A DNA stretch of 24,000 nt from Anaerolineae bacterium. GTDB taxonomy: Bacteria > Chloroflexota > Anaerolineae > JAAYZQ01. A program made the position numbers and the translations under genes. A model generated the notes under the pieces. It was not told where the DNA came from. It saw nothing but the letters and a program-made list of their open reading frames with translations, and ran no database searches. Shown here one piece after another: positions 2 to 15,255 of this stretch. The stretch is from NCBI GenBank assembly GCA_034429215.1, contig DAOUGI010000022.1, positions 7,132 through 31,131 of the forward strand, in the 5' to 3' direction. Position 1 is the stretch's first letter. Each line of letters opens with the position of its first letter.

Positions 2-2404
2 GAGCGAGTGGATACCCTTGATGCATTTGAAGCCGTCATTGACCGGCAGTGGGAAGTCATCGTTGCCGACTATGCCATGCCGCACTTTGGCGGGCTGGCT
101 GCCCTGAAACGGGTGCAAGGCATGGGCCTTGATGTGCCGTTCATCATCGTTTCCGGCACAATTGGAGAAGACAGCGCCGTAGCGGCCATGAAGGCCGGAG
201 CCCACGACTATGTCATGAAAGATAATCTGGCGCGCCTGGTTCCTACCGTGCAGCGCGAGCTGCGCGAGGCACAGTCGCGGCAGGCGCGTCGACGTGCAGA
301 GGAGCGGCTGCGCGAAAGCGAGGCTCGCTACCGGCAATCCGTAGAGAACTCGCCCAACCCCATCTTTTCGGTGAATAGAGAAGACACCGTCCAGATGTGG
401 AATCAGGCCTGCGAGCAGGTCTTTCAATACAAGGCAGAAGAGATCATTGGCAGGGCTTATCATCAACTCCTGTGGGACACACAAGAGCAGGCTGCGGTTG
501 ATGGCCTACTGGCCCAGGTCTGGCAAGGGCTGTCGGTAAATGAGCAGGAGATGCAGTATCGGTGCAGGGATGGAACACAGCGGTTCATGGTCACGCGCAT
601 CTACCCTGTCTGCGATCTAGAGGGGCAGGTGGAAGGATGCGTGTTTGCCAATACCGACATCACCAAGCGCAAGCGAGCTGAACGGTTGCTCCAGGCACTG
701 AACGTAGCATCCCTGGCGATGCAGAAAGCCACAACACCGCAAGAGGTACTCACTACAGCAGGGGAAGGGTTCAAAGAGCTGGGTTTCTCTTGCGCGATTT
801 TCTTCACCGACGAGAGGCAAAGCAGGCTATTTCCCGAGTATCTCAGTTACAACCCAAAAGCGGTCAAGCTCGCAGAAAAGTTGCTCGGTGTCAATGCTGA
901 AACCTTTTCCCTAGCTGTCGAAACAGCAGATGTGTGGAAAGAGTCGACATGGAAGGGAAAAACCGTCTTTGTGGATGGCGCTGAGGGGTCGCGGCAGGTA
1001 CTGCCCAAGCCCTTGAAAAAGTTTGCCGGCCAGCTCGCTCAGGTCTTGGGGATCCCCAGATCGGTAATCGCCCCCCTCATCTTGGAGGACAAGGCCATCG
1101 GATTGCTCTCTGTCCAATCAGACGATCTCACCAAAGACGACATGCCGGCCATCACTGCCTTCGCCCACCAGATGTCAGCTGCCTGGCGCAAGGCCTGCTT
1201 AATGGACGACCTGGAAACGAGCCTGGAGGAGCTGAAACGCACGCAAGCCCAGCTCTTGCAGGCACAAAAGATGGAAGCGATCGGACGGCTGGCCGGCGGG
1301 GTCGCTCACGACTTTAACAACATGCTGACCATCGTCCATCTCAGCACGCGGCTACTGAAGCGGCAATTGCACCCGGAAGATCCATTGCTGGAATATGTGC
1401 AGCAGATCGAAGAAGCCGGAGACCGGGCTACCGCGCTAACCAAACAGTTGCTCAGCTTTAGCCGCCGGGATGTCATCGAGCCCCATGTTGTCGATCTCAA
1501 CCAAGAGATCGGCAGATTGAGCCGGATGCTGCAGCGTGTCATCGGTGAAGACGTCGATCTGGTGACCATGCTGTCCGAGGATTTGTGGCCCGTCTATCTG
1601 GATCCGGCCCAGATCGATCAGGCGATCGTGAACTTGGCCATTAACGCCCGCGACGCCATGCCCAACGGAGGCCGCCTGACAATCGAGACAACCAACACAA
1701 TGCTCGATGGGACATCCGCTGTCCGCCAGGTAGGCCTACAACCAGGAGATTATGTACAGCTCACTGTGACAGATACAGGGGTGGGTATGGGCGACGAAGT
1801 CAAAGCCCACCTTTTTGAGCCATTCTTTACAACCAAGGAACGGGGCCAAGGCACCGGCTTGGGCTTGTCCACTGTGTTTGGCGTCATTAAACAGAGTGGC
1901 GGACACATCTGGATTGACAGCGAAGTGGGGCAAGGCACGACCGTCCAGATCTACTTGCCCCGCACTGACAAGGTCGAGTCCCCAGATTCGCTGCGCGCAA
2001 CGCCCGCCAGCGCACTCCGTGGCAGTGAAACAATCCTGGTGGTGGAGGACTATACTGGCGTTCGAGATCTGGCTACCCAGATCCTGACAACGCACGGCTA
2101 CCAGGTGCTTGCCGCCAAAAACGGCCCCGAAGCCCTACGGATCAGCCTGAGGCACGACCGTCCCATCCACCTGCTATTGACGGACATGGTCATGCCCGGA
2201 ATGAACGGCAAGGAGTTGGCTGAGCAGATTCAAGCCCAGCGACCCGGCATTCGGATCCTGTATATGTCGGGATACGACAATCGCCTGGTTGAAGCCCCTA
2301 CGGTCCTAGGCGCGGGCGTGGCTTTCTTGGCCAAGCCGCTCACCGTGGAGACCCTGACCGAGAAGGTGCGAGCAGTGCTGGACAGGCCCAGTGAGATAAT
2401 CTGA
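2..2404 (+). CDS. Hybrid sensor histidine kinase/response regulator (REC-PAS-GAF-like-HisKA-HATPase_c-REC); 5' end cut by window edge
   Basis: The frame is open to the window start, and the first residues (EVIVADYAMPHFGG...FIIVSG...AGAHDYVMK) are the middle of a receiver domain, so the GTG at 8 is not the true start. A coiled-coil plus PAS region follows (NPIFSVN...WNQACEQVF...RCRDGT). H-box GGVAHDFNNML. HATPase_c N/G boxes (NLAINARDAMPNGG, DTGVGM, GQGTGLGLS). C-terminal receiver (ILVVEDY...LLLTDMVMPGMNG...LAKP). Stop TGA at 2402-2404. Confidence 0.9.
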   Translation, partial: ERVDTLDAFEAVIDRQWEVIVADYAMPHFGGLAALKRVQGMGLDVPFIIVSGTIGEDSAVAAMKAGAHDYVMKDNLARLVPTVQRELREAQSRQARRRAEERLRESEARYRQSVENSPNPIFSVNREDTVQMWNQACEQVFQYKAEEIIGRAYHQLLWDTQEQAAVDGLLAQVWQGLSVNEQEMQYRCRDGTQRFMVTRIYPVCDLEGQVEGCVFANTDITKRKRAERLLQALNVASLAMQKATTPQEVLTTAGEGFKELGFSCAIFFTDERQSRLFPEYLSYNPKAVKLAEKLLGVNAETFSLAVETADVWKESTWKGKTVFVDGAEGSRQVLPKPLKKFAGQLAQVLGIPRSVIAPLILEDKAIGLLSVQSDDLTKDDMPAITAFAHQMSAAWRKACLMDDLETSLEELKRTQAQLLQAQKMEAIGRLAGGVAHDFNNMLTIVHLSTRLLKRQLHPEDPLLEYVQQIEEAGDRATALTKQLLSFSRRDVIEPHVVDLNQEIGRLSRMLQRVIGEDVDLVTMLSEDLWPVYLDPAQIDQAIVNLAINARDAMPNGGRLTIETTNTMLDGTSAVRQVGLQPGDYVQLTVTDTGVGMGDEVKAHLFEPFFTTKERGQGTGLGLSTVFGVIKQSGGHIWIDSEVGQGTTVQIYLPRTDKVESPDSLRATPASALRGSETILVVEDYTGVRDLATQILTTHGYQVLAAKNGPEALRISLRHDRPIHLLLTDMVMPGMNGKELAEQIQAQRPGIRILYMSGYDNRLVEAPTVLGAGVAFLAKPLTVETLTEKVRAVLDRPSEII

Positions 2405-2420
2405 GGATCCGGACTACGAT

Positions 2421-3347
2421 TCATGCCAAGGCGTCTCGCAACGCCCCTTCAAGCTCGGGAAAATGGAACTGGAACCCCATGTCAAGAAGGTGGCGCGGCA
2501 CACCCCGCTGCCCGGTAAGCAACAGATCGGCCACTTCCCCAAACATTGCCTTCATCATCAAGCCCGGCACAGGCAGCCAGGCAGGCCTGCCCAGGACCCG
2601 CCCAAGGGCACGCGCGAATTGAGCATTGGTCACCGCCTGGGGTGCCACAAGGTTGAACAGCCCAGAGGCAGACTCGTTCTCGATCAGAAAACGGATCGCC
2701 CTGGCTTCATCCTTGAGGTGGATCCACGACATCCACTGCTTGCCGCTTCCGATAGGCCCGCCGGCGAACAGGCGAAACTGCAAGATCATCGGCCGCAGGG
2801 CGCCATGTGCCTTGTCGAGCACAACCCCGGTCCGCACAATGGCCCGCCGGACACCCATCGCCTCGACAGGCGCCGTGGAAGGCTCCCAGTCGTGCGCGGC
2901 AAAGCTGGCCAAAAAGTCTTGGCCTATCGGGCCATCCTCGGCAATTAGGTCATCGCCACGGGGGCCATACACCCCGACTCCCGATGCCTGTATCACAACG
3001 CGTGGCTTGCGGGTCACCTGCCTGACGGCGTCGACCACCGCCTGCCCCGCATTCAGCCGGCTTTCACGGATGATCCGTTTCCGCCCATCGGTCCATCGGC
3101 TGGGAAAAAGCCCTTCGCCCGAGATGTTCGCCCCGGCTAGGTTGACAATGGCGTCGGCGCCGTCGGCCAGCGCGGCCCACCCATCGCCGCTACGCCCGTT
3201 CCAGCGTTCAGCCCTCACCCCAGCAGGCAATCCTTTGACCTGCTCCGGTGCACGGCTCAAGACGATGACTTTATGGCCGTCCCTGGCTAGATCAGCAGAC
3301 AACGCTCCGCCGATGAGTCCGGTCCCCCCCGTGATAATGACGCGCAT
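2421..3347 (-). CDS. TIGR01777/YfcH-like atypical SDR (NAD-dependent epimerase/dehydratase fold with DUF1731-type C-terminus)
   Basis: N-terminal Rossmann motif MRVIITGGTGLIGGAL...GHKVIVLSR. C-terminal LLLTGQRGVPRHLLDMGFQFHFPELEGALRDAL is typical of the YfcH/DUF1731 tail. SD GGAGG lies 7 nt upstream of ATG 3347. Last gene of the heliorhodopsin operon. Confidence 0.8.
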   Translation of the reverse strand: MRVIITGGTGLIGGALSADLARDGHKVIVLSRAPEQVKGLPAGVRAERWNGRSGDGWAALADGADAIVNLAGANISGEGLFPSRWTDGRKRIIRESRLNAGQAVVDAVRQVTRKPRVVIQASGVGVYGPRGDDLIAEDGPIGQDFLASFAAHDWEPSTAPVEAMGVRRAIVRTGVVLDKAHGALRPMILQFRLFAGGPIGSGKQWMSWIHLKDEARAIRFLIENESASGLFNLVAPQAVTNAQFARALGRVLGRPAWLPVPGLMMKAMFGEVADLLLTGQRGVPRHLLDMGFQFHFPELEGALRDALA

Positions 3348-3394
3348 GTGATGACCTCCAGGTTCCTCTAGTCCAGGCTATCCACCTGGTCCGG

Positions 3395-4699
3395 CTATTG
3401 GCTGCCGGTGGCCTTTTGCAGCCAGGTGAGAATCAGGTCGCCGCGCCGGTCGAGCTCCCCCTCGGCAGCCACGCGGTAGGCGTGCAGGTAACGGGCCAGG
3501 GTGCCTTCCGGCACGCCCGCTCGGGCGAGCCTCTCCTCAGCATCAGCGATGTTGAAATCGAGAAAAATCACGTCCCCCAGGGCGAGCGCCGCCTCCAGGT
3601 GTGATGCAAACTCTTCGTTGGCGTGGGCCAGGTGCCACAAAGAAAGGCCGATCTCCCCGGCGGTCTGGCTCATCCTTGATTCAATCGATCCGCGCCGCTC
3701 GCGGAAATGCTCCAGGGCCGCGCGAGGCTCCACCGGGATCGGCTCGCCTTCTGGCGCACGGGGAGGGAATGGCATCAGCGAGTCCACCGCGTCGGCTGCC
3801 GTCGTCAGGCTTTCACCAAGGAAATGGCCGGAAATCCGGGACCGGATGGCCGGAAGCGAATGGAATATTCCTCCCCCATAGCCGATCGGCGTATGGTCCT
3901 GTAGTGCATGGGTCGTCTCGAGCAGGGTTGCCGCCGAGGGCAGCCGCATCGCGGTCAGGATTGACAGGCTTGGCCGGACGGCCGCGACGGTAGCTTCCAG
4001 TTGCTCCACCGGCACGTTCGCCCCGAGGTACACAACCGCCCATCCACGGCGGCGCAGCAGGAAGGTCAACAGCAACAGGCCAAAGACATGGTACTCCTGC
4101 GGTGGGCAGGCAGCTAGGATCTGGCCCGGCCGCGTGGCAGGGGAGGCAGCCATGAGCAACGACTCTAGTTGGCGGATGGCCAGCTCTGACACAAAGTGCT
4201 CCTGCTGCACTGTAGCAGCGCCCTGCTGCCAAAGAACGCCCACCTCTGCCAGGGCCCACCGCAGCAATTCAAGGCAGACGGTTTCTGGAGGGTAGAGCGC
4301 AAATGCCTGCGCCGCCGCCTGCTCAGCCCACTGCTCGTCATAGGCCAAGCAGGCCGCGAGCCATTCGTGCCGCAGCTCGTCCAGCGTGCCACCCACGAGC
4401 CCTAGCTTGACCACCGGAGTGGCTGGCAGCGCAAACGGCAGCGCATCGCTTCCGCCGGCCTCGATCCGGCGCCACAGGTCGACGGCCCGGCTGATGCTCA
4501 GTCCTTCTCGCAGGCGAGCCACCAGCCAGTTCAGCGCCTCAATGTCGTGCTGGGTGTAGAGGCGATGCCCGCCGCCGCTCCGGGTGGGAGACGGCACCCC
4601 ATAGCGACGCTCCCAAGCACGCAGAGCATCGGCCTTTAGGCCTGTCTGCTTCAGGACGGCCTTTAGGTTGAACAGGGGTCCTTCACTCTCAGCACTCAT
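3395..4699 (-). CDS. CarH/LitR-type light-responsive transcriptional regulator (MerR HTH + B12-binding module) with an extra C-terminal domain of about 130 aa
   Basis: MerR HTH: FNLKAVLKQTGLKADALRAWERRYGVPSPTRSGGGHRLYTQHDIEALNWL. Four-helix-bundle signature W-x9-EH (LWQQGAATVQQEHF). Lower-axial-ligand motif ExHxxG (PPQEYHVFGLLL), then SxL (SILT) and GGG of the Rossmann B12-binding fold. It continues about 130 aa beyond where CarH normally ends. AGGA lies upstream of ATG 4699, 13 nt after the DUF1295 stop. Confidence 0.8.
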   Translation of the reverse strand: MSAESEGPLFNLKAVLKQTGLKADALRAWERRYGVPSPTRSGGGHRLYTQHDIEALNWLVARLREGLSISRAVDLWRRIEAGGSDALPFALPATPVVKLGLVGGTLDELRHEWLAACLAYDEQWAEQAAAQAFALYPPETVCLELLRWALAEVGVLWQQGAATVQQEHFVSELAIRQLESLLMAASPATRPGQILAACPPQEYHVFGLLLLTFLLRRRGWAVVYLGANVPVEQLEATVAAVRPSLSILTAMRLPSAATLLETTHALQDHTPIGYGGGIFHSLPAIRSRISGHFLGESLTTAADAVDSLMPFPPRAPEGEPIPVEPRAALEHFRERRGSIESRMSQTAGEIGLSLWHLAHANEEFASHLEAALALGDVIFLDFNIADAEERLARAGVPEGTLARYLHAYRVAAEGELDRRGDLILTWLQKATGSQ

Positions 4700-4712
4700 T
4701 TTTCCTGCACAC

Positions 4713-5501
4713 TCAGCGCCGTTTCTTGGGGAACCAGGGCAAAAAAGCGCTTGTACTCTCGATATACTCGCGGTAGCCTGGCTTGGTCGTCGTCAAGGTT
4801 TTTTCCAACAAAGCCACTCCCGAAACCCGGAGCAGCATGAGCGTCATCAGGATTGGGCTCCAGATCGTCCAGAACCCACCCGCCGCCGCGGCGATGAGAT
4901 AATATCCCCACCACTGGGCCGCGTCGCCAAAGTAGTTTGGATGGCGGCTGTAGCGCCATACGCCGCTGTCCAGCACCTTTCCCTTGTTCGCCGGATTGGC
5001 CTTGAACCGGGTGAGCTGCAAATCTCCCACAGACTCAAAAAAGAACCCAATGGCCCACACCACAGCGCCCAGCAGGTCCACCACGGTCAGGCGGTCGGGT
5101 GTCGGGCTGATCTGAGCGGCCAGAAGCGGCGCCGAGATGATCCACAACAACACGCCCTGCAGCATAAAGACGCGAAAGAAGCTCTGCCACCACCAGCGGG
5201 TCCCGAACTCCTCTCGCCACTTGCGATAGCGAAAGTCTTCTCCCGCGCCCCAATTGCGGCGCAAAAGGTGAATCGACAGGCGCAGCCCCCAGATTGTGAC
5301 CAAAATGGCGATCAGCCACTTGCGCGCCGGGAACCCGTCGGGCGTCAGGGCAAAATAGAGCCAGTTGGCAATGACAAAACCGGTCCCCCAATAGGGATCG
5401 ACAATGCTCGAGTTGCGCAAAACCAGGCTGAGGCCCCACAACAGAGCCATGAGCCCCAACGTCACGCCCAGGCCGATGAGATACGCTTCCAGAAATGTCA
5501 T
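4713..5501 (-). CDS. DUF1295 family polytopic membrane protein (steroid 5-alpha-reductase / ICMT-like superfamily)
   Basis: Multi-TM hydrophobic profile. Hallmark C-terminal motif WRYSRHPNYFGDAAQWWGYYLIA. SD GGAGGT lies 6 nt upstream of ATG 5501. Confidence 0.8.
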   Translation of the reverse strand: MTFLEAYLIGLGVTLGLMALLWGLSLVLRNSSIVDPYWGTGFVIANWLYFALTPDGFPARKWLIAILVTIWGLRLSIHLLRRNWGAGEDFRYRKWREEFGTRWWWQSFFRVFMLQGVLLWIISAPLLAAQISPTPDRLTVVDLLGAVVWAIGFFFESVGDLQLTRFKANPANKGKVLDSGVWRYSRHPNYFGDAAQWWGYYLIAAAAGGFWTIWSPILMTLMLLRVSGVALLEKTLTTTKPGYREYIESTSAFLPWFPKKRR

Positions 5502-5521
5502 CTCTTTACCTCCATCAGGTG

Positions 5522-6364
5522 CTAGCTTTTCGCTTGTATGGCCACAAAACCCGCTGCCCTGGGGCCGATGTGGGTGCCGATAACCGGTGTCACTTCGGCA
5601 ACCATCGGCTCTTCGGCATCAGGAAACAGATGCAAGGCCTTCTGATGGAGAAACTCTGCCTTGTCAGGCGCATGGGTGTGAACCAGGGTCAGCTTTTCAA
5701 AAGGCGCCAATTGGGTTACAAGCTCCATCAGCCGGGCAGAAGCGCCATTCCGCGTGCGCACACGCTCCATCTCAAACTCGCCGCGGTGCATCTTGAGCAA
5801 GGGTTTGATCTGAAGCACAGATCCCAGGCTGGATTGGAAACGGCTCAGACGGCCGCTGCGCCGCAGAAATTCCAGGGTGTCCAGGGCGGCGATGCAATGG
5901 GTGCGGGACGCCTGGTCCTCAATGGCTGCCATAATATCGCTCATGGGCTGACCCTCGGCCGCCGCCTTGGCCGCGGTGACGGCCAACAGGCCGGTGCCCA
6001 GGGTTAACTGGCCCGAGTCGAATACGGTAACCGGCACCCTCTTTACCTCTTCTGCCGCCAGGCGCGCCACGGCCATCATGGCGCTCAGGCCGCTGCCGAT
6101 GTGGATCGAGAGGATCTCGGTAGCCCCGGCCTGCGCAAGGTTCTCATAAACCTGAACAAACTGCCCAGGGCCCGGAACTGAAGTGGTGGGGTGCGCTTCG
6201 AAATGGGGCAAGCCCTCGTAAAACTCCTCATGCGACATCTCGACGCCGTCCAGATAGCTCTTCTTGCCAATGTTGATGTACAAAGGCACGACGGTTATGC
6301 CATACTCGGCCACCATATCCTCGGGCAAATCACAATTACTGTCAGTTACGATCTTGATGCCCAT
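5522..6364 (-). CDS. DegV family fatty-acid-binding protein (FakB-like)
   Basis: Canonical DegV N-terminus IKIVTDSNCDLPEDMVAEYGITVVPLYINIGKKSYLDGVEMSHEEFYEGL. Length 280 aa is typical. SD GAGGGAG lies upstream of ATG 6364. Confidence 0.85.
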   Translation of the reverse strand: MGIKIVTDSNCDLPEDMVAEYGITVVPLYINIGKKSYLDGVEMSHEEFYEGLPHFEAHPTTSVPGPGQFVQVYENLAQAGATEILSIHIGSGLSAMMAVARLAAEEVKRVPVTVFDSGQLTLGTGLLAVTAAKAAAEGQPMSDIMAAIEDQASRTHCIAALDTLEFLRRSGRLSRFQSSLGSVLQIKPLLKMHRGEFEMERVRTRNGASARLMELVTQLAPFEKLTLVHTHAPDKAEFLHQKALHLFPDAEEPMVAEVTPVIGTHIGPRAAGFVAIQAKS

Positions 6365-6393
6365 TCCCTTACTCCCTCTTGACTAATAAGGAT

Positions 6394-6858
6394 CTACAAT
6401 CGGTAGTCGGCCGGGGTTCCCCAACGCTCTGTCTTGTGGTAACGACGGTTGGTCGATTGAAAATGGATCCAAATTGGCACCCGATCCAGCTCCGGCCTGG
6501 CCTCAAATAGGCCTCTGTCGCCCATACGAAGCGCCTCGATCGCCAGTGGAAGCTCGTGCCGGAAAATCCTGTCACGCATGCCAGCAGCGCCAAAAGCCAG
6601 CCCTCCGCTGACGTGGCAAAAGATGTGCAGCGCCGGTCCATCCTCGCCCTCCTGCCACTCAGCCAGCACCTCATCGCGCATCAAACGGGTGTACCAGCCC
6701 GAGATCTGTTCGCGATCCACTTCGGGCGCAATGGTCAAGAACAGCTCGCCCGTTGTGTCAGAGTGGGTTAGGGTGTAGCGCCTGGGGTTAAGCGGGCCAT
6801 CAGTTGTGGTACCCACCGCGAACTGGACGTGCAGCTTTTCCGGACTGAGACGACTCAT
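6394..6858 (-). CDS. Staygreen (SGR) family protein, bacterial homolog of chlorophyll Mg-dechelatase
   Basis: Colinear by eye with the plant SGR core. This ORF has PRRYTLTHSDTTGELFLTI, GWYTRLMRDEVLAEW, LHIFCHVSGG, IFRHELPLAIEAL, VPIWIHFQS and ERWGTP. Plant SGR has PRTYTLTHSDITSKLTLAI, GWYNRLQRDEVVAEW, LHVHCHISGG, IFCKELPVVLKAF and VWVYFHS. The THSD and RDE acidic/His motifs are intact. SD GGGAGAAG lies upstream of ATG 6858. Confidence 0.85.
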   Translation of the reverse strand: MSRLSPEKLHVQFAVGTTTDGPLNPRRYTLTHSDTTGELFLTIAPEVDREQISGWYTRLMRDEVLAEWQEGEDGPALHIFCHVSGGLAFGAAGMRDRIFRHELPLAIEALRMGDRGLFEARPELDRVPIWIHFQSTNRRYHKTERWGTPADYRL

Positions 6859-6869
6859 AGCTTCTCCCA

Positions 6870-6902
6870 GCCCCCACGCCGGGTGTCGTCCGGCGTGGGG
6901 GC
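6870..6902 (-). promoter_or_regulatory. Intercistronic GC-rich stem-loop between heliorhodopsin and SGR genes (13-bp perfect stem, 7-nt loop, no U-tract)
   Basis: 6870-6882 (GCCCCCACGCCGG) is the exact reverse complement of 6890-6902 (CCGGCGTGGGGGC). The loop is GTGTCGT. On the mRNA strand the stem ends 1 nt before the SGR SD (GGGAGAAG) and starts 25 nt after the heliorhodopsin stop. Confidence 0.7.
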
Positions 6903-6927
6903 GCTTGGTGATCGCAGCGATAGGGGC

Positions 6928-7752
6928 CTAGACGGGAGCCAGCGTCCCGGCAAAGATCATCCAGGCCAGTGCAGTCTTGGCCGCCAGGCTGAGGATGATG
7001 TACACCCGCTCGCCGAACAGGTAATCTTTCCAGCGGCCGACCTTCTTGTATTGCAGGAACATGTTCACGGCAAAGATATTAAAGAATACAAAGATCGTGG
7101 GGATGATGGCATACACAAAGGCGGGCGGCTTGGCATCCCCAGACGACAATGCGCTCAGGAAGTACATCACAATCACCACCCACGGAATAATCCCCGCGAT
7201 ACAGCCATAGATGAACGAGGTCCAGTCGGTCTTTTTCGTCGTCTGGTTGTGCAGCTCCATGATCATGCCAAACAGGTTCATCATGGCGTTAATGCCAAAC
7301 ATCACGATCATAGTGCCCAGGTCCCACACGCCGACCAGCATGCCGATCAACACGATCATCAGCGAAGAGCTGAGGGCATACTCGTAAAAGCGCGCCGGGT
7401 TCATGCCCACCTTGAGATGCTTTACGTACCACTTGTAGCCAAAGGTGGCCAGGGACAAGTGGGCTACTGCAGAGATCAACAGAAACAAGGCAACCGCCGG
7501 GCCGAATCGCAGGTCAAAGGCCAGCTTTGGATCCGGCACTAGGGCACGAGCGGCCATGTCGAACTTTAAAAAGTTGGTATAGATCGGATAGGTCGTGTCA
7601 TTGCTGAGCACGATCATCAGGATGCCCTGGATCAGGTGCAGGAACCCCATCACCAGGTTAAAGCGGCGCAGACCTTGGTAGGTCTTTTCGGGTACGTCCG
7701 GCGTCTTGGTCATGACAACAGATTTGGGCGCGGCTTTGGATTTCGCAGGCAT
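6928..7752 (-). CDS. Heliorhodopsin (retinal-binding 7-TM photoreceptor, inverted topology)
   Basis: Alignable by eye along its full length to heliorhodopsin 48C12. Conserved blocks: GFLHLIQ (TM1 His), ALFLLISAVAHLS (TM2 His), RFYEYALSSSLMIVLIG (counterion Glu), GCIAGIIPW, AFVYAIIPTIFVFFNIFA, QYKKVGRWKDYLFGERVYIILSLAAKTALAWMIFAGTL (Schiff-base Lys in SLAAK). Lys-rich N-terminus. I prefer ATG 7752 (SD AAGGAGA 8 nt upstream) over the TTG at 7812 given in the ORF track. Confidence 0.92.
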   Translation of the reverse strand: MPAKSKAAPKSVVMTKTPDVPEKTYQGLRRFNLVMGFLHLIQGILMIVLSNDTTYPIYTNFLKFDMAARALVPDPKLAFDLRFGPAVALFLLISAVAHLSLATFGYKWYVKHLKVGMNPARFYEYALSSSLMIVLIGMLVGVWDLGTMIVMFGINAMMNLFGMIMELHNQTTKKTDWTSFIYGCIAGIIPWVVIVMYFLSALSSGDAKPPAFVYAIIPTIFVFFNIFAVNMFLQYKKVGRWKDYLFGERVYIILSLAAKTALAWMIFAGTLAPV

Positions 7753-7830
7753 GATACTTTTCTCCTTGTCTTGTAGTTGGATTAGAATGTCCTTATGGTG
7801 CGGGCGCTGCAATTCCCACTACCGATAGAG

Positions 7831-7859
7831 ATTTTACCACAAGCCTGACGTTTTGTCAA
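7831..7859 (-). promoter_or_regulatory. Predicted sigma-70-type promoter of the heliorhodopsin operon
   Basis: Read on the minus strand: TTGACA (7859-7854), a 17-nt spacer, then TAAAAT (7836-7831) preceded directly by TGG (extended -10 TGn). It lies in the only AT-rich stretch of this region. The predicted leader to ATG 7752 is about 70 nt. Confidence 0.65.
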
Positions 7860-7874
7860 TATATTGTCGATATT
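7853..7874 (-). promoter_or_regulatory. Two tandem 11-bp direct repeats, candidate CarH-type operator overlapping the -35 box
   Basis: On the minus strand: AATATCGACAA (7874-7864) then TATATTGACAA (7863-7853). They match at 8 of 11 positions with exact 11-bp phasing. Both fit all five specified positions of nAnnTnnACAn. The flanking 11-mers (AACGCGTAAGA upstream, AACGTCAGGCT downstream) fit only 2 of 5 positions. Confidence 0.55.
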
Positions 7875-7939
7875 TCTTACGCGTTTCTAATAGGGGAGGT
7901 GGGCGCTATTATCTACCTGATGCCCGTGAGGCAATTGCA

Positions 7940-9952
7940 TTATCTCAATGACATGGTTGCGCCGCTCCTGTCCCCATGGTAGATGAATCCTAGCATGCGG
8001 CTGATCTTGGTCGGGTCAATACCTGCGTCGACCAGGGAGGCAGTCTGCCATTCGTCGTCGGTTTGCTCGGGGATCTTGTCATACGGGGCCAGCGTGGGTA
8101 CCGGCGTTCGGGCGGGTTGGGTGGCTGGTACTGTCACTGCTAGGCCTGTTGCAGGTACTGGTCCGAAAGCAGGCCTACACATGGGCGTGATCTTATCCAG
8201 CTCCCGCACCGCTGCATCCCAGGTGAACTCCTGGTTGTCGCTAAAGTAGTAATATGCGGTCCCGTTGGGCATGATGGCAACCACATTGCCGCTGATCCCA
8301 AGCATCTGCGGCACCCAGAACTCGCAGTCAAAGCCGTCGGCTTGGCTATAGCGGTTAGCCCAGAAGGCGTTATTGTACACCCGCCGGCTGTCTATCATTA
8401 CGCCACGGTCATCGGGTGATCGCTGTAGGGCGGCGGCAAGCAGGCCAGGGTGCAACACCTGGACGCCATCGATCTGCCCCTGCCAACTGTTCAGCAGGGT
8501 GGCAATCTTGGCGATGTCATCTGGAATCCACCACAAGCCATAGCCGCCCTCGGCCTGCCCCTGCCAGTCGTTGTCGGCGGTGCGCATGGTGGTGTATGCC
8601 CCTGGGCCGAGCCCGAGCGGCCGGTAGACCTCATCTACCACGAACTGGAAGATATCTGCCCCAGGACCTTCTTGGCTCTGCAGATAATTATGTAAGGCCC
8701 TGGTGAGGATGAATGTGTCACCGGTATGATACACCCAGTGCGTGCCCGGCTCAGCGGCCTGAGGCCAATCAAATGCCGCGGCGATCCGCGCGGCGTAGGG
8801 CTGGGCGCCAAAGAACTCGCCCATGTTAAAGCCGTCCTCGTCGGCCATGTAGCCCGCCGAGCCATAGTTCCCGGCAGACATGTCTATGGTGTGGTTGAAT
8901 GTCACCCGTTCCCAGTCCCCTGGGCTGGCGGCATATTCCGGGACATAGTCCTTGATCAGCAGGCCGGCCACCTCGGGCCCATATTTCTGCGCCAGGCGCA
9001 TCAGGGCCACGCTGACAAACGCCGATTTGGCAGTGGAGAAAGAGGCAGCGCGCATCGACTCGCAGTAGGGATAGATCCCAAAGCGGGTCTGGCAGCCGCC
9101 CAGGTAGTTGACCCCGTTCGCCACGACGCCATACCAGGTCATGTGCTCCGGACTAACGCCGCGCCCAAAGCCCGTGATGTCAACCCCGAGATAATCCTCG
9201 GCCAGCGCCTGGATCGGTTTGGTCGGCATGCGGGCGGCCAGCTCGGCCGCAAACTCGGTCCGGATGCGCTCGGCATCCTGAACAGGTCCTGGATAGTACG
9301 CAGCGTCCAGCAATCCCCACAGATCAGCCCGCGTGTAGGAAGTGACTTCTTGGGTAACCTGGTACCAGACCTTCGAGACGCTTCTTTCATCGAACAGGAA
9401 GGTCATCGTGCCATTAAAGCAGGAATTGCCGCCCTTGACCACCAGTGCAAAGGGCAAAGATGCCCGCGAGAAACCGCTATCGCCGGCCTCCTGCCACACC
9501 CGCCCCGGCTCAAGGATAATGTTCCACTCAGGATGGCCGGTGACGATCGATCCGCGCTGCACGGGGAGCAGATATCCATCGCTCTGCACGAATTCAAAAT
9601 CAAACTCTGGCAGGTAGGCGTATTCCGGCCCCAGCTCGCCCTGCAGCACCTGAATCTGGCCGCCTTCCCTCTCCCCGGCCAGCTCCAGGCGGCCTTCAAA
9701 GATGTGTGCCGCCGGAGCGGCGCCGGAAGGCGGGGCAAGTGCGCTCTCGTCCACCGGCGACGTGGCCTTGAATCCGTTCGCCAGCGCATCGTAGGTCAGC
9801 AGCGAGCGCTCCACCTCCCCGCTTCCGGCAAGAGCGGTGGTAGGCATCGTCGCGGCCGGCGTGGCGGTCGCCGCTGGGCTGACAGCATTTGGGGCAGAAG
9901 TACATGCAGCCAGGAGTATAAGGCCCACCAGAAGCAGCCGCGCAGCCTTCAT
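7940..9952 (-). CDS. Lipoprotein with beta-lactamase-fold serine hydrolase domain
   Basis: From ATG 9952 (SD GGAGG 5 nt upstream): MKAARLLLVGLILLAAC, a signal peptide with lipobox LAAC, followed by an Ala/Thr/Pro linker. Candidate SxxK nucleophile motif (FSTAKSAF) sits in a region of about 350 aa with beta-lactamase/esterase-like character. Pro/Thr-rich linker near the C-terminus. The ORF-track start at 10006 would overlap the upstream gene. Confidence 0.6.
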   Translation of the reverse strand: MKAARLLLVGLILLAACTSAPNAVSPAATATPAATMPTTALAGSGEVERSLLTYDALANGFKATSPVDESALAPPSGAAPAAHIFEGRLELAGEREGGQIQVLQGELGPEYAYLPEFDFEFVQSDGYLLPVQRGSIVTGHPEWNIILEPGRVWQEAGDSGFSRASLPFALVVKGGNSCFNGTMTFLFDERSVSKVWYQVTQEVTSYTRADLWGLLDAAYYPGPVQDAERIRTEFAAELAARMPTKPIQALAEDYLGVDITGFGRGVSPEHMTWYGVVANGVNYLGGCQTRFGIYPYCESMRAASFSTAKSAFVSVALMRLAQKYGPEVAGLLIKDYVPEYAASPGDWERVTFNHTIDMSAGNYGSAGYMADEDGFNMGEFFGAQPYAARIAAAFDWPQAAEPGTHWVYHTGDTFILTRALHNYLQSQEGPGADIFQFVVDEVYRPLGLGPGAYTTMRTADNDWQGQAEGGYGLWWIPDDIAKIATLLNSWQGQIDGVQVLHPGLLAAALQRSPDDRGVMIDSRRVYNNAFWANRYSQADGFDCEFWVPQMLGISGNVVAIMPNGTAYYYFSDNQEFTWDAAVRELDKITPMCRPAFGPVPATGLAVTVPATQPARTPVPTLAPYDKIPEQTDDEWQTASLVDAGIDPTKISRMLGFIYHGDRSGATMSLR

Positions 9953-9965
9953 CCGAACCTCCAGG

Positions 9966-10763
9966 TCAATGAGTCCCGTACTTCTCCAGCCGCCAAAACG
10001 TGTCAAACCACGGCGGAGCTATCTGGGTGAAATGCGACCAGGAGCCCGGCTCCGGGTTTTCGGCGCGCTCCATCCATTCCCACAAGCCCAAAAAACAAAA
10101 CCCATTGCCGACCAGCGTGTTCATCACAGTGCTCAGGGTATGGCGGAACTCATGCGGCCCGGACAGCCTGACCGACGAACCATCGGGCTGGGCGACGTCC
10201 CAATGCGGATAGTAGCGGGTCAGGTCTTCACCGTCGATGTAGGGACGGTTGAGGGCGTACGCCTCCCCGTCCCAGGCCTCATCGTCCACGGCGTGGCTAA
10301 AGGGGTTGGCAAACTGCAAGAAATAGATCCCGCCCGACTTGAGCACACGCGCCACTTCCCGGAAAACGGGCTCCACCGATGGGCAAAAGTTCAGAGAGTA
10401 GACCTGCCAGATCACGTCAAAGCGGCCAGCGGCAAAGATCGACAGATCGCGCATGTCGCCCTGGTGTGTCGCTACCTTCAACCCGTGGTGCGCGGCCGCC
10501 TGCCGGTCGCGCTCTAGCTGTACGTCGGACAGGTCCAAAACCGTCACGTCCGCTCCCAGCAGTCCGAAAGCGACCGAGTCCTGCCCGCCGCCGCTGGCCA
10601 GGCACAGCACGCGCTTGCCGGACACGTTGGTCAGGACGCCGTGCCGGCCTATCTGCCGGCGCGCCTCTTCGGGGGTATACTCCAGCCAGGGCTGCGACCA
10701 TTCGACATTGGCCTGCGCCAGGGCGTTCCATCGCTCGCGGTTAGTCCTGTTGATTTCGTCCAT
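9966..10763 (-). CDS. Class I SAM-dependent methyltransferase
   Basis: Motif I VLCLASGGGQDSVAFGLLGADVTVLDLS. Post-I/II elements (FDVIWQVYSLNF, VLKSGGIYFLQF). Confidence 0.8.
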   Translation of the reverse strand: MDEINRTNRERWNALAQANVEWSQPWLEYTPEEARRQIGRHGVLTNVSGKRVLCLASGGGQDSVAFGLLGADVTVLDLSDVQLERDRQAAAHHGLKVATHQGDMRDLSIFAAGRFDVIWQVYSLNFCPSVEPVFREVARVLKSGGIYFLQFANPFSHAVDDEAWDGEAYALNRPYIDGEDLTRYYPHWDVAQPDGSSVRLSGPHEFRHTLSTVMNTLVGNGFCFLGLWEWMERAENPEPGSWSHFTQIAPPWFDTFWRLEKYGTH

Positions 10764-10779
10764 GACTTATCCCCTGGTT

Positions 10780-11709
10780 TCAGAACTCTTTGAGCCACGT
10801 CTTGGAATCCTCTTTTGTTCCGAGCACGGACCCGTACAACGCGTCGGCGGGCGGATCATAGGCATTGGCCAACAGCCGGGTGCAGCCCATCAATTGCAGG
10901 CGCCTCATCCCTTCGGTCATGACGGCTTTGCCCAGCCCGCGCCGCCAGTGCTCCGCGGCCGTCCCCACCAGCACCGACACGGCGCTGCGGGTGTAATCGT
11001 CGTAAAAGATGGTGCAAAAGGCAGCGATGCTGCCGTCCGGGGCAGCGGCGACGATGTCCAGGTCGCGGCGGTAGAGCGGGGCAGACTGGACGTTTTGGTA
11101 CCACGACCAGTCGCCATCATAGGCCTCGTCCGGCTCGTCGGCGTGAAAAGCGCGCCACGAAGCCCAACTGCGGGCCGGGTGCTCGCTCAGGTCCCCCATC
11201 GAGCGGATGGTATACCCCGGTGCAAGCGGCGTTTCCGGCAGGGGGCACTCCAGATCCCGGTGCCAATGATGGACAACCCCGCTCTGCCTGGTGTACCCAC
11301 GCCGAGTCAGTATCTCCTGGCGTTGGGCATCGTCGGCAAAGGCGGGGACATACACGATCCGTTCCCCAGTCTGATTCCGGCCAAACAGGTGCTCCTCGGC
11401 ATGGGCGAGCATCTCGTCCTCCAGATCTGCCGTACGGAAATGGGGATGCACGTGCAGGCACACCTCACTCCAGCCGACCGGATGCAGCACTGCTGCTATC
11501 TGATCCCCAGCCGTCTCCCACAGGGTGGCCGCCTTCTCCACCGGGTCACACACCTGAAGGTTCAGGACAAAATGCCAGCGCAAGTAGTCGAGGCGCGCGA
11601 CGTGCCAGCTATGCTCGCGGCGTCCGTTGAGCGCAAACACTTCCCGCAGGAAATTGCGAATCCGCCAATAATCGTCTTCAGTTTGGGCCTGTTGCATAGT
11701 TAGCTTCAC
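10780..11709 (-). CDS. Two-domain GNAT family N-acetyltransferase (paralog of 14303-15247)
   Basis: C-terminal GNAT motif A: VGTAAEHWRRGLGKAVMTEGMRRLQLMGC. Roughly half of the residues are identical by eye to the 14303-15247 product, including EDDYWRIRNFLREV, GYTIRS, QSAPLYRRDLDIVA and DGSIAAFCTI. The start is GTG 11709 (or ATG 11697), 3 nt after the APH-like stop. Confidence 0.8.
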   Translation of the reverse strand: MKLTMQQAQTEDDYWRIRNFLREVFALNGRREHSWHVARLDYLRWHFVLNLQVCDPVEKAATLWETAGDQIAAVLHPVGWSEVCLHVHPHFRTADLEDEMLAHAEEHLFGRNQTGERIVYVPAFADDAQRQEILTRRGYTRQSGVVHHWHRDLECPLPETPLAPGYTIRSMGDLSEHPARSWASWRAFHADEPDEAYDGDWSWYQNVQSAPLYRRDLDIVAAAPDGSIAAFCTIFYDDYTRSAVSVLVGTAAEHWRRGLGKAVMTEGMRRLQLMGCTRLLANAYDPPADALYGSVLGTKEDSKTWLKEF

Positions 11710-11712
11710 AGC

Positions 11713-12774
11713 TCACCGCCTCTCAAGGTATCGCAGCAATTTGGTTCCGTCCCGGTTCCGCCACTCCTCGTGTTCGGCCCGCCTGGCCGGGTCGTTCTTG
11801 ATAAACAGGGATGCCCACAGGACCATGGTGGCATATTGCGTGGCCATGAACAGGTCGAGGTGCCGGAGCTGCGATTCGGGCAGCGTGCGGACCTGGGCAT
11901 AGCCCTCCAGAAAGGCATCCCGCATCCAGTACCATTCCTCGGTCCAGGGCCACAGGCACAGGGCGATGGCAATGTCCCACAGCCAGTAGCCAAAACCGCA
12001 GTCCTCAAAGTCGATCGGATACGCCTCGTCGCCCTTAAACAGCACATTCTCCGGATACATGTCGGCGTGGATCAGGCCATAGGCATCCGGCCCCTTGCCC
12101 AGGCCCTCCATCACCTGCCGCGCCTCTTGCGACACGATCTCGAACGGCTTTCTCAAGCGCTCCGGCATCGAGGCCACCAGCTCTTCGACACCGCCGTCGA
12201 AATACCGCCCGCCCAGTTGGCCCTCCCAGTCCCACACAGGCCGCTCAAACCCATCAGGAGGCTGCCAGCCCGCCGCGAACTGGTGCAGCCGGGCCACCAT
12301 CCGCCCCCAGGCCCGGAAATGGCTGGGGCGAAACCCTTTGGTCAACCTTCGCCCGTCGATCCAGCGCATCAGCGATACAATCCGCCCCTGTGGCGTCCCC
12401 GGAGTGGTGAAGCTCGTCACCAGCTCACCCTCCAGATTGGGCACCGGCTCTGGCACAGGCAGACCTGCCTCGCGGCTCAGCGCCGCCAGCCAGGTCATCT
12501 CTCCCTTGGTGCCCTCCAGGTGATCTGTATAGAGAACCCGCAGCAGATAGCGGTTGGGCACGTAGGGTCCTGGCCCCTCCCCCCTGACCGCAAGGGAAGC
12601 CGGGACGTCAACCCGGTAGATGATGTTGGCCGAGTATTGGACGAACTCGAGCCGGGCTCCACTCAAGCCATAGGCATCGAGCGCAGCCTCGGCCAGTCGC
12701 CTGGTCTGGCGCAGTTGGCCCAGGCGTGTCAGATCACCATAGGGCTTCACAATCCTTCGTCTCCTGGTGAGCAT
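11713..12774 (-). CDS. Phosphotransferase-family kinase (APH / CotS / homoserine-kinase-II-like fold)
   Basis: Brenner catalytic motif GLIHADMYPENVLF and Mg-binding PIDFEDCGFG. The start is ambiguous. ATG 12774 follows a GGGGGA run. GTG 12750 would form a GTGA 4-nt overlap with the upstream stop. The ORF-track start at 12816 is less likely. Confidence 0.75.
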   Translation of the reverse strand: MLTRRRRIVKPYGDLTRLGQLRQTRRLAEAALDAYGLSGARLEFVQYSANIIYRVDVPASLAVRGEGPGPYVPNRYLLRVLYTDHLEGTKGEMTWLAALSREAGLPVPEPVPNLEGELVTSFTTPGTPQGRIVSLMRWIDGRRLTKGFRPSHFRAWGRMVARLHQFAAGWQPPDGFERPVWDWEGQLGGRYFDGGVEELVASMPERLRKPFEIVSQEARQVMEGLGKGPDAYGLIHADMYPENVLFKGDEAYPIDFEDCGFGYWLWDIAIALCLWPWTEEWYWMRDAFLEGYAQVRTLPESQLRHLDLFMATQYATMVLWASLFIKNDPARRAEHEEWRNRDGTKLLRYLERR

Positions 12775-13829
12775 TCCCCCGCCAGATTCAACGGCAGGGT
12801 AATGGTGAACCTGCACTCGTCGTTGCCCCTCAGCAAGGTCTCGGCCTGTTCAAACCTGACCGGCTGCTCTAAAATCCCCTCCCACAGCCGCCGGTACCAG
12901 CCCGCTCCACAGAAACAAAAGGTCGGCGACAGCTTGGCAGGGATTTCGTCAAGATAAGGGTGGACAAATGGGCAATGGCAGTAGGCCTTGCGCCGTTCAG
13001 CCGGGGTCGCTGCCTTCTCAAAGCCCTCGGGGTCAAAGGGGTTCTTGCGCATGTGGACAACGTTGCCCTTGCGCACCGGCTTTTCATACCAAAAGCTGTC
13101 GGCGTACATCTCGTGCAGGACGTCGTCGATCTCGCCGCGCCGGTGATAGATGGCGCGCAGGTGATCGATCCGCTCCTGCGGAAAGACGTGAGCGCAGTGC
13201 GACACGGCCTGGCACTTCTTTTCGGCGTCGTCGCTCAGCGCATCCAGCCGCTCGATGGCGCCCTGGATCCAGGCGGTGTAATCGTCAAAGGAGGATGCAG
13301 GCGTGATCGCTTCGATCCCCTGCATGACCCGCTCTCGGGCCTCCATCCCAAGGACCGTTTCGGTACCCTCGGCCAGCAGCCGATCCCACTCGTGCAGGAT
13401 CACCTGCACCTCGGTGACATCCTCCTCCGGATGGGCGGCATCCAGCGCCCGGTAGATCTCCCGCCTGAACAGGGACGTCGTCCCGGCGTGCTTGTCCAGG
13501 TAGGCGTAGATCCTGAGCACGCTTTCCCGGATCGACCGGTGCGCGCCGTGGTGGAGCGTGATCAGCGCCGGGGCAGCTTCCAGCGTGCGGGTGCGAACCT
13601 CGCCGGTTTCCACCGCGCGCACCACCGGGAAAGCAGCTTCGACCAGAAAGCCGTCCTTCACCGCCCCGCCGTGAAAGATAACCATGGCATCGCCGCGGAT
13701 GGCCTCGCCGCAGGCCGCCCGCAGCCGGTCAAGCAGCGGCGGGATCTCGTCGCGGGTGTCGATGCGGGCTGTGAGGCTGGCGATCTGAACCGGATCGAGT
13801 TTTCTGTAAATGATAGGTTCGTCAGTCAT
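12747..13829 (-). CDS. Fusion protein: N-terminal GyrI-like/effector-binding-type domain plus C-terminal Cys/His-rich domain of unknown function
   Basis: The N-terminal ~150 aa (IASLTARID...IPPLLDRL...FHGG...FLVEAAFPV...LEAAPALITLHHGAH...IYAYLDKHAG) follows the pattern of GyrI-like small-molecule-binding domains. The C-terminal part carries CQAVSHCAH, YCHCPFVHP, FCFCGAGWYRRLWE and ECRF. No HTH is present. Confidence 0.5.
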   Translation of the reverse strand: MTDEPIIYRKLDPVQIASLTARIDTRDEIPPLLDRLRAACGEAIRGDAMVIFHGGAVKDGFLVEAAFPVVRAVETGEVRTRTLEAAPALITLHHGAHRSIRESVLRIYAYLDKHAGTTSLFRREIYRALDAAHPEEDVTEVQVILHEWDRLLAEGTETVLGMEARERVMQGIEAITPASSFDDYTAWIQGAIERLDALSDDAEKKCQAVSHCAHVFPQERIDHLRAIYHRRGEIDDVLHEMYADSFWYEKPVRKGNVVHMRKNPFDPEGFEKAATPAERRKAYCHCPFVHPYLDEIPAKLSPTFCFCGAGWYRRLWEGILEQPVRFEQAETLLRGNDECRFTITLPLNLAGECSPGDEGL

Positions 13830-13865
13830 CTCTGTTTCCTCCAGGTTGGACAGACGCCCATGGGA

Positions 13866-14291: not shown

Positions 14292-14302
14292 CTTGCGTCC
14301 TT

Positions 14303-15247: not shown

Positions 15248-15255
15248 AATTTATG

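Follow-up and report, generated by a model that had tools for sequence, protein, structure and literature searches.

The window, by which we mean the whole stretch of 24,000 nucleotides analysed, contains a regulator gene whose product joins a MerR-type DNA-binding domain and two B12-binding modules to a C-terminal domain that is predicted to be a photoglobin. With a probability that we put at roughly 55%, the protein is an AdoCbl-dependent, CarH-like photoreceptor-repressor, that is a MerR-fused photocobilin in which the photoglobin would form a cap that binds bilin weakly or not at all, and it would control an operon headed by a heliorhodopsin gene.

Domain architecture of the regulator

The reading frame is preceded by an AGGA ribosome-binding site 5 nt 5' of the ATG. 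It is divided as follows:

3395..4699, minus strand: regulator gene, predicted CarH-like MerR-fused photocobilin; ATG start, 434 aa; MerR-HTH + B12-binding_2 + B12-binding + photoglobin
4478..4666, minus strand: MerR-type winged HTH, residues 12-74; Pfam MerR_1 PF13411, E=1.6e-11; aligns with the DNA-binding domain of Thermus thermophilus CarH (TtCarH)
4178..4372, minus strand: four-helix-bundle B12 cap, B12-binding_2, residues 110-174; G154xxW157, E167-H168, Q158 opposite TtCarH His132
3776..4123, minus strand: Rossmann B12-binding domain, residues 193-308 (Pfam B12-binding 193-284); lower-ligand His204 in E202-x-H204-x-x-G207; G226xxxP230
3734..3775, minus strand: Pro-rich linker MPFPPRAPEGEPIP, residues 309-322; high-confidence region of the model (pLDDT about 89-94)
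3398..3733, minus strand: predicted photoglobin domain of phycobiliprotein-like globin fold, residues 323-434; ~112 residues in five main helices

The initial annotation regarded the CarH-type B12 motifs as intact, and this is borne out by W157-x9-E167-H168, embedded in L156-W157...E167-H168-F169, and by E202-x-H204-x-x-G207, embedded in Q201-E202-Y203-H204-V205-F206-G207. W157, E167, H168 and H204 are invariant across the family. The MerR HTH and the W-x9-EH and ExHxxG motifs are all shared with T. thermophilus CarH/LitR (5C8D, 5C8E, 5C8F, 3WHP), to which the regulator is about 30% identical over residues 1-304. On the other hand, the NCBIfam equivalog model for CarH (NF052513) returns 135.3 bits and its cut-off of 400 is not reached. 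TtCarH His132, which stands beside the Trp and forms the bis-His light adduct, is replaced by Gln158 in the regulator and by a consensus Tyr in the family. At the C-terminus, TtCarH is about 130 residues shorter than the regulator and has no globin domain. The earlier statement that canonical CarH proteins have nothing beyond the Rossmann domain agrees with the alignment of the Thermus protein (5C8D/3WHP), which extends only to about residue 304.

Identity of the C-terminal domain

Sequence comparison gave no access to the extension. Residues 300-434 have no match in Pfam, even at E<=10, because no Pfam model exists for photoglobin, and residues 301-434 alone match nothing in Pfam, NCBIfam or the PDB sequences. 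Structural evidence comes from AlphaFold (AF2) models of the full-length protein (pLDDT 88.4) and of the C-terminal domain alone (pLDDT 91.7), which were matched to the PDB. In the model, the approximately 112 additional residues behind the Pro-rich linker form a separate all-helical domain, as had been anticipated from the sequence, with main helices at 323-345, 354-373, 377-393, 400-415 and 418-430 and a short turn at 347-350.

The best PDB matches of the full-length model are the photocobilin structures 8J2X and 8J2W (TM on target 0.79-0.80, 346-349 columns of 329-337 residues), and the fit to the photocobilin 8J2Y yields a TM of 0.83-0.85 and an rmsd of 3.1-3.4. Overall, the whole-chain fits to photocobilins span TM 0.79-0.85, rmsd 3.1-3.8 and 333-349 columns, whereas CarH structures rank behind them (TM 0.55-0.67, rmsd 13-21). 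When the isolated domain, for which a fold search had been suggested, was submitted to Foldseek, all of the top 50 PDB matches were phycobiliproteins (TMq 0.51-0.70). The initial annotation had likened the extension to sensor-globin and RsbR-N-like bundles; the globin-like part of that comparison stands, while RsbR-N and haem sensor globins as closest relatives have to be given up, since none occurs among these 50 matches and the nearest structures are photocobilins and phycobiliproteins.

Profile comparisons contribute less. With the B12 domains as an anchor, and not otherwise, the alignment of a family profile HMM with 8J2Y, 8J2X and 8J2W extends across their globin domain. With hhalign, the family of the C-terminal domain aligns with the three photocobilin globin domains over 83 columns (E 3e-4, probability 40%, with a template of 3 sequences), and the probability is 13% against the single AbPcob globin sequence. 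Sequence and profile searches of the PDB with the C-terminal domain only did not reach any solved photocobilin or phycobiliprotein; profile HMMs of this domain, or of the Rossmann end plus this domain, returned from the PDB only designed helical proteins at E>0.1. The alignment of the Rossmann plus C-terminal-domain profile with SasPcob was confined to the Rossmann part, and a homologue search seeded with an AbPcob fragment retrieved a single relative (P0289). The homology of the extension to photoglobins is thus based on predicted structure and on weak profile alignments.

Taken as predicted structures, the models show the extension to be a phycobiliprotein-like photoglobin domain that is packed on both B12 modules as in photocobilin crystals, and the regulator would therefore be a DNA-binding member of the known photoreceptors that combine B12 and photoglobin domains (photocobilins). 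The extension is accordingly not the unexplained element for which it had been taken. The combination of MerR-HTH, B12-binding_2, B12-binding and photoglobin has been listed computationally, with Chloroflexi (Anaerolinea, Herpetosiphon) included in the alignment (Schneider et al., 2021; PMC8717448), and photocobilins have been characterised as proteins with a bilin-binding globin domain (Zhang et al., 2024; PMC10979010). Both the domain and the architecture are known already, and the regulator adds one member. Its domain order matches that of Schneider et al. (PMC8717448), and here too the B12 and globin domains would act as a coupled sensory hub for a transcription factor.

Sequence identity to SasPcob (8J2W/8J2X) and AbPcob/AbDPcob (8J2Y) amounts to 20-25%. 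Like the regulator, these proteins have no His at the position of TtCarH His132, but they are stand-alone or fused to diguanylate cyclases, whereas the regulator bears an N-terminal MerR DNA-binding domain. With phycobiliproteins (allophycocyanin, phycocyanin, smURFP) the isolated domain shares the fold at 11-18% identity. Unlike them, it has neither the two N-terminal X/Y helices nor a Cys to which a bilin could be attached covalently, and light harvesting is not its function.

Candidate operator and operon

Two further features bear on the function of the regulator:

7831..7873, minus strand: candidate target promoter TTGACA-17-TAAAAT with TG-extended -10, upstream of heliorhodopsin-SGR-DegV-DUF1295-regulator-SDR
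2421..3347, minus strand: SDR/epimerase with DUF1731, 47 nt downstream of the regulator gene

CarH operators reportedly follow a consensus of tandem 11-bp nAnnTnnACAn repeats, described by Jost et al. in 2015. Two perfect direct repeats of this type (AATATCGACAA TATATTGACAA) lie over the -35 element at 7854-7873 on the minus strand, as the tandem 11-bp repeats do in the T. thermophilus CarH operator; a third repeat is degenerate. The tandem pair matches exactly once in the 24 kb, where 0.02 matches are expected, and this match coincides with the -35 element of the one strong promoter in the window. Furthermore, about 14 of 80 related loci carry the tandem motif upstream of their regulator gene, at a distance of 50-250 nt, and one locus (L012) has it as three repeats. 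Genome-wide, the two-repeat pattern is not enriched over a reversed control (2 vs 3); the significance of the operator derives from its position and its conservation across loci and not from its count. Judged from these sequence features, 7831..7873 is probably a target of the regulator. The SDR/epimerase gene follows the regulator gene in 33 of the 80 loci. While the CarH regulon consists of carotenoid genes, the candidate regulon described here is a heliorhodopsin operon, and this link is the more surprising part of the biology.

Proposed mode of action

The full set of CarH-type AdoCbl-binding residues is present, and a PduO-type adenosyltransferase is encoded in the genome. In the dark, an AdoCbl-bound oligomer would sit on the 11-bp direct repeats and block the heliorhodopsin-SGR-DegV-DUF1295-regulator-SDR operon. 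On exposure to UV, blue or green light the Co-C bond would be cleaved, with a shift of the Glu-His helix in the four-helix bundle and disruption of the head-to-tail dimer interface; release of the DNA would then switch on the operon, the repressor gene included. As the His needed for the bis-His adduct of TtCarH is Gln158 in the regulator, the light state is expected to differ from that of CarH and to resemble that of SasPcob, with water- or hydroxide-ligated cobalamin and a modest rearrangement. The photoglobin is most likely a bilin-free or weakly binding cap and not a biliverdin antenna; its role would be to cover the edge of the corrin and to adjust either the photochemistry or the oligomer.

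The bilin pocket and alternative readings

The question whether the globin domain holds a chromophore turns on two sites, for which residue equivalences were taken from HMM alignments with an uncertain register around 360-363:

3542..3544, minus strand: codon of Asp386, equivalent to AbPcob W291 / SasPcob Trp296
3611..3619, minus strand: N361-E362-E363, region equivalent to the CXQD / SasPcob Asp270 bilin-contact site

In SasPcob, Trp296 contacts both the corrin and the D ring of biliverdin (PMC10979010). The corresponding position is Trp in 235 of 247 family members (about 95%) and in 62 of 64 genome loci, whereas the subclade of the regulator has D, S, G or T in 19/19 cases and Trp in 0/19. 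The second site belongs to the photoglobin signature, a helix-3 Asp with Cys, Ser or Thr three residues earlier (PMC8717448), also given as 'CXQD' (Rockwell et al., 2023; PMC10151467). In the regulator it reads A360-N361-E362-E363, with neither a Cys nor the conserved Asp. SasPcob Asp270 is placed opposite E363 in two HMM alignments, and an ungapped register leads to N361 or A360, so that its counterpart would be Glu363 or Asn361. Across the family, the E363 column contains E, H, N or Y and the helix-3 Asp of photoglobins (D49; CXQD; Asp270) is not conserved; within the subclade the acidic E363 is kept.

It is conceivable, albeit unlikely, that the regulator is a two-chromophore photocobilin, in which the photoglobin would hold biliverdin or another linear tetrapyrrole near the corrin and extend the response of the repressor to red light; it would then be a natural broad-spectrum light-switched transcription factor. 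Such a function was predicted for MerR-photoglobin fusions by Schneider et al. (PMC8717448). It is in keeping with the match over the whole chain to SasPcob and AbPcob, in which the domains are arranged alike, with the phycobiliprotein-like fold, with the acidic E363 opposite Asp270 and with the strong conservation of the pocket-like residues L372, G375, D376, Y404, Y408 and W426, which are near-invariant or family-conserved photoglobin residues. Against it stand the replacement of the corrin/D-ring Trp by Asp (S, G or T elsewhere in the subclade) and a CXQD site without Cys and conserved Asp. In addition, AbDPcob, which has His at the position of Asp270, is a poor biliverdin binder with an occupancy of only about 20% (PMC10979010). 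Finally, canonical heme oxygenase, the family to which the search was directed (PF01126), was not found in the regulator's own genome, a 95%-complete MAG, nor in any of the 41 genomes searched (own plus 40 relatives), 17 of which carry the photoglobin extension domain. A bilin could also come from haem degradation of the IsdG, ChuS, HugZ or ChuW type or from bilin uptake. Taken together, the exchange of Trp296 for Asp386, the lack of conservation of the key Asp and the negative search for a canonical heme oxygenase make biliverdin binding doubtful on sequence grounds. A ligand pocket may nevertheless persist, given that E363 is kept and that Y404, Y408 and W426 are nearly invariant.

We consider it rather improbable that the globin domain senses another small molecule and would thereby supplement the light switch with a chemical signal. 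Such a ligand might be a compound derived from retinal, a carotenoid or chlorophyll, or else a fatty acid, for which RsbR-type non-haem globins are the precedent. Non-haem globins do take varied ligands (PMC8717448), and the products of the operon include a DegV that binds fatty acids, a homologue of the SGR Mg-dechelatase and a retinal protein. Moreover, the pocket residues of the subclade have diverged jointly (I/L359 to H, N367 to H, W386 to D/S/G, L390 to R). The same divergence is, however, equally explicable as relaxed constraint after ligand loss, and structures of RsbR or haem globins are missing from the top 50 fold matches. Still less probable is the specific version in which the remodelled pocket would bind a non-bilin ligand of its own operon (such as a chlorophyll-derived product of the SGR homologue, a fatty acid of DegV or retinal), such that metabolite and light together gate the heliorhodopsin operon.

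Distribution and significance

Returning to the favoured reading of a bilin-free or weakly binding cap, a MerR-fused photocobilin with an identifiable candidate operator would offer a direct system for the effect of the globin domain on the B12 light switch, for which spectral extension, shielding of the corrin and a change of oligomer are candidates. A comparison suggests itself between the family members with Trp and the subclade from which it was lost, and the proteins are possibly of interest to builders of green- and red-light gene switches. In the literature searched, experimental photocobilin studies deal only with stand-alone and diguanylate-cyclase-fused proteins. The DNA-binding photocobilin-type proteins constitute a large, uncharacterised family of the Anaerolineae.

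In fact, the architecture, whose spread the initial annotation had left to be gauged, is common in this class: relatives are encoded at at least 593 genome loci, and the extension alone matches 153 clusters at 50% identity (E<=1e-3). It can practically be dismissed that the extension is a long-form Rossmann or cap region also found in characterised LitR/CarH proteins, or that it stems from read-through or a faulty assembly; both possibilities, raised at the outset, were looked at and neither holds, since the aligned part of TtCarH goes no further than about residue 304, the model shows the extension as a self-contained domain of five helices (pLDDT 91.7), and the 153 clusters together with nearly all of the 80 loci examined, which match to about residue 427-434 and thus reach the C-terminus, rule out an artefact. 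These 80 loci all belong to Chloroflexota, mostly to Anaerolineae. Among the close homologues listed (n=20), the full-length ones share the architecture of the regulator.

Domain structure of the regulator

The protein under study is a predicted B12-dependent photoreceptor-repressor related to CarH. Two features in its gene are referred to below:

3395-4699, minus strand: regulator ORF, ATG start, 434 residues
4226-4228, minus strand: codon for Gln158, next to the adenosyl-stacking Trp and aligned with His132 of Thermus thermophilus CarH (TtCarH)

The ORF is separated by 13 nt from the end of the upstream gene and has an AGGA 5 nt before its start codon. Pfam assigns MerR_1 (residues 12-74), B12-binding_2 (110-174) and B12-binding (193-284); nothing matches beyond residue 284, and residues 301-434 alone gave no Pfam match even at E ≤ 10. 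The MerR HTH, W-x9-EH and ExHxxG motifs are intact, as the initial annotation had it (G154-V-L-W157...E167-H168 and E202-Y-H204-V-F-G207, followed by G226-A-N-V-P230). The NCBIfam CarH equivalog model covers residues 12-281 with 135 bits, far under its cut-off of 400. The alignment with TtCarH (3WHP, 5C8D) stops at about residue 304, where CarH ends, and the regulator runs on to residue 434, in agreement with the extension beyond canonical CarH proposed initially.

The extension is a probable photoglobin domain

A full-length model built from a 56-sequence alignment without templates reached a mean pLDDT of 88.4, with disorder confined to the N-terminus and to linker 86-101. Helix 298-308, the last of the Rossmann domain, is followed by a well-ordered Pro-rich linker and helices 323-345, 354-373, 377-393, 400-415 and 418-430; a short turn (347-350) separates the first two of these. 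In Foldseek searches of the PDB with this model the photocobilins, photoreceptors composed of B12 modules and a photoglobin, ranked top: TM was 0.83-0.85 for Acidimicrobiaceae AbPcob (8J2Y; rmsd 3.1-3.4, 333-334 columns) and, on the target, 0.79-0.80 for Saccharothrix syringae SasPcob (8J2X/8J2W; 346-349 columns for 329-337 residues), versus 0.55-0.67 with rmsd 13-21 for full-length CarH chains. As roughly one residue in three of a photocobilin chain belongs to the globin domain, TM values of 0.8 or more imply that this domain, too, must superpose with the same placement against the B12 modules; the modelled extension would sit on these modules as the photocobilin globin domain does.

The isolated domain, modelled from 64 orthologous C-termini of the related genome loci (mean pLDDT 91.7, pTM 0.85), had exclusively phycobiliproteins or the allophycocyanin-derived smURFP among its 50 best PDB matches (TMq 0.51-0.70, probability 0.97-1.00). 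The early suggestion of a sensor-globin or RsbR-N-like bundle thus holds for the globin-type fold; neither RsbR nor a haem globin appeared among these 50. This fold match is the relationship reported for photoglobin, a non-haem globin related to phycocyanin that is without a Pfam model, is nearly always fused or adjacent to B12-binding_2 plus B12-binding, and lists MerR-HTH as one fusion partner (Schneider et al., 2021; PMC8717448). On the strength of the models, homology of the extension to photoglobins is very likely. Sequence comparison is only suggestive: profiles of the C-terminal domain alone found no significant match in the PDB, and hhalign of the 64-sequence domain profile against three sequences (AbPcob, SasPcob and P0289, an AbPcob relative with 72% identity) aligned 83 columns (E 3e-4, probability 40%). 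Positions 143-409 of the full-length family profile align unbroken with residues 39-310 of the 8J2Y chain, across its globin domain; in 8J2X and 8J2W the profile likewise runs through the globin domain, as far as chain residues 315-317.

Distribution of the extension

A word-seeded search in which only residues 300-434 counted towards the score returned 20 proteins; full-length members have 431-467 aa and the same Pfam architecture as the regulator, and extension identity within the close set is 56-91%. With residues 301-434 as the query, an exhaustive phmmer search of 1.84 billion cluster representatives yielded 153 matches (E ≤ 1e-3). Full-length ones comprise about 425-490 aa (one has 573) with the matched part at the C-terminus; short ones start within the Rossmann domain and are therefore regarded as contig-end fragments, not stand-alone domains. 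A profile search added at least 120 proteins, all of 435-462 aa, the few named ones being 'MerR family transcriptional regulator' of Anaerolineae, Chloroflexota or Promineifilaceae. At least 593 stretches in species-representative genomes encode relatives; the best 80 of these all stem from MAGs of Chloroflexota (Anaerolineales, Caldilineales, Ardenticatenales), and in all but a few of the 80 the match extends to about residue 427-434. The domain occurs in 17 of 41 genomes of the same class, including 14 of 22 of the same family. A read-through artefact or an unconserved extension, considered at the outset, is excluded by the 153 clusters, the at least 593 loci and the reach of the matches. 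One Promineifilaceae MAG contig (locus L065, 2805-3149 and 4405-4755) carries two photoglobin-bearing copies of the regulator, separated by about 1.3 kb; they are probably tandem paralogues.

The literature searched for photocobilin and photoglobin contained no characterized MerR fusion and no experimentally studied member of the large Anaerolineae clade to which the regulator belongs. The combination of MerR-HTH, B12 modules and photoglobin is already published, and the present protein adds a member.

Chromophores and light state

According to Zhang et al. (2024; PMC10979010), photocobilins bind AdoCbl and biliverdin side by side. Their five-helix globin domain touches each of the B12 modules and covers the edge of the corrin, and light alters their quaternary structure and switches on partner enzymes. 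In SasPcob, Trp296 touches corrin and bilin D ring, and AbPcob has His in place of SasPcob Asp270 (PMC10979010). The relevant part of AbPcob contains a single His, at chain position 265, with a Trp 26 residues on (291); the aligned positions in SasPcob are Asp and Trp, likewise 26 apart, which identifies the AbPcob pair as the probable equivalents of Asp270 and Trp296. In all three alignments the Trp296 position lies opposite Asp386 of our protein. Trp occupies this column in 235 of 247 family proteins and in 62 of 64 genome loci; the regulator's own subclade (n = 19) has S/G/D/T there and never Trp (0/19), and the same 19 proteins show further changes (L390 to R, N367 to H, I/L359 to H). The Asp270 position falls opposite E363 in two HMM alignments, in a column that varies family-wide (E/H/N/Y); in an ungapped register it would face N361, which is strongly conserved, or A360. 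Photoglobins have a 'CXQD' motif (Rockwell et al., 2023; PMC10151467). At this site the regulator reads A-N-E-E and so offers no Cys for covalent bilin attachment; SasPcob likewise lacks this Cys. Canonical heme oxygenase (PF01126, the family covered) was found neither in the regulator's own 95%-complete genome nor in 40 relatives, while control genomes were detected; a PduO-type adenosyltransferase is present in its own genome. We put the chance that the protein binds biliverdin at roughly one in four.

In the bis-His light adduct of TtCarH, His132 serves as upper ligand. Its place is taken by Gln158, in a column that is Tyr in most of the family, which points to a different photoproduct; judged from this residue, a light state like that of SasPcob is more likely than one like that of CarH. 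In its predicted mode of action the regulator resembles CarH, in its modelled build a photocobilin. With CarH it shares the HTH, W-x9-EH, the His ligand and a predicted operator, but it stays under the equivalog threshold and has no His132 equivalent; with photocobilins it shares the modelled fold and domain arrangement but lacks the two bilin-contact residues.

Heliorhodopsin operon and predicted operator

The regulator belongs to a run of six minus-strand genes with gaps of 13-69 nt:

7812 to 2421, minus strand: heliorhodopsin, Staygreen/SGR Mg-dechelatase homologue, DegV, DUF1295, regulator, SDR with DUF1731
7831-7859, minus strand: near-consensus sigma-70-like promoter, TTGACA-17-TAAAAT with TG extension

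This promoter is the sole sigma-70-like one found within 2300-8200, and with heliorhodopsin and a B12 regulator behind it the operon encodes two different photoreceptors. A heliorhodopsin-DegV-DUF1295 neighbourhood is already known from a report that nowhere mentions MerR or B12 (Chazan et al., 2021; bioRxiv 10.1101/2021.02.16.431466).

Two repeats, AATATCGACAA and TATATTGACAA, span the -35 element, and both fit nAnnTnnACAn, the CarH operator repeat consensus from work on TtCarH and DNA. Genes, promoter and repeats together occupy 2421-7873 on the minus strand. The window has a single instance of the two-repeat pattern, versus 0.02 expected, and the best 80 related loci have 22 in 20 loci; about 14 of these occurrences lie 50-250 nt upstream of the regulator start on the coding strand and are followed by an extended -10. 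Three repeats stand in tandem in locus L012, a relative with heliorhodopsin and SGR. Because the genome-wide two-repeat count equals that of the reversed control, position and conservation carry the argument for an operator. The one other site in the whole genome (G000 C97:93519-93538, equal to L091 5020-5039, minus strand; ATCTGGACAATACCTTGACA) has a flank close to that of the window site (shared ATTAGAA..GCGTAA.AA), a TATAAT -10 and, downstream, genes for an M50 peptidase that carries CBS domains and for an SDR, along with folB/folK/folE of the pterin/folate pathway; it may mark a second regulon member.

Of the 80 best loci (L009-L088), 33 have an SDR/epimerase with DUF1731 behind the regulator in the same orientation. 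Other neighbours recur mainly in the closest relatives: DegV in 10 loci, DUF1295 in 6, SGR in 3 and heliorhodopsin in 1. At 2374-3018 of L012, the closest heliorhodopsin-bearing relative, the N-terminus of the downstream SDR runs in frame into a stretch resembling the C-terminal part of a photolyase (WQWTAGTGTDAAPYFRIF...). The junction reflects a rearrangement or else a chimeric assembly, and it hints at a nearby photolyase gene. Directly upstream of the heliorhodopsin promoter lies a long co-directional cluster (7940-18437, minus strand) with a beta-lactamase-fold protein, a methyltransferase, several GNAT acetyltransferases, an APH-type kinase and an Old Yellow Enzyme-type oxidoreductase. 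Convergent with the 3' end of the operon is a hybrid histidine kinase gene (8-2404, plus strand; REC-PAS-GAF-HisKA-HATPase-REC).
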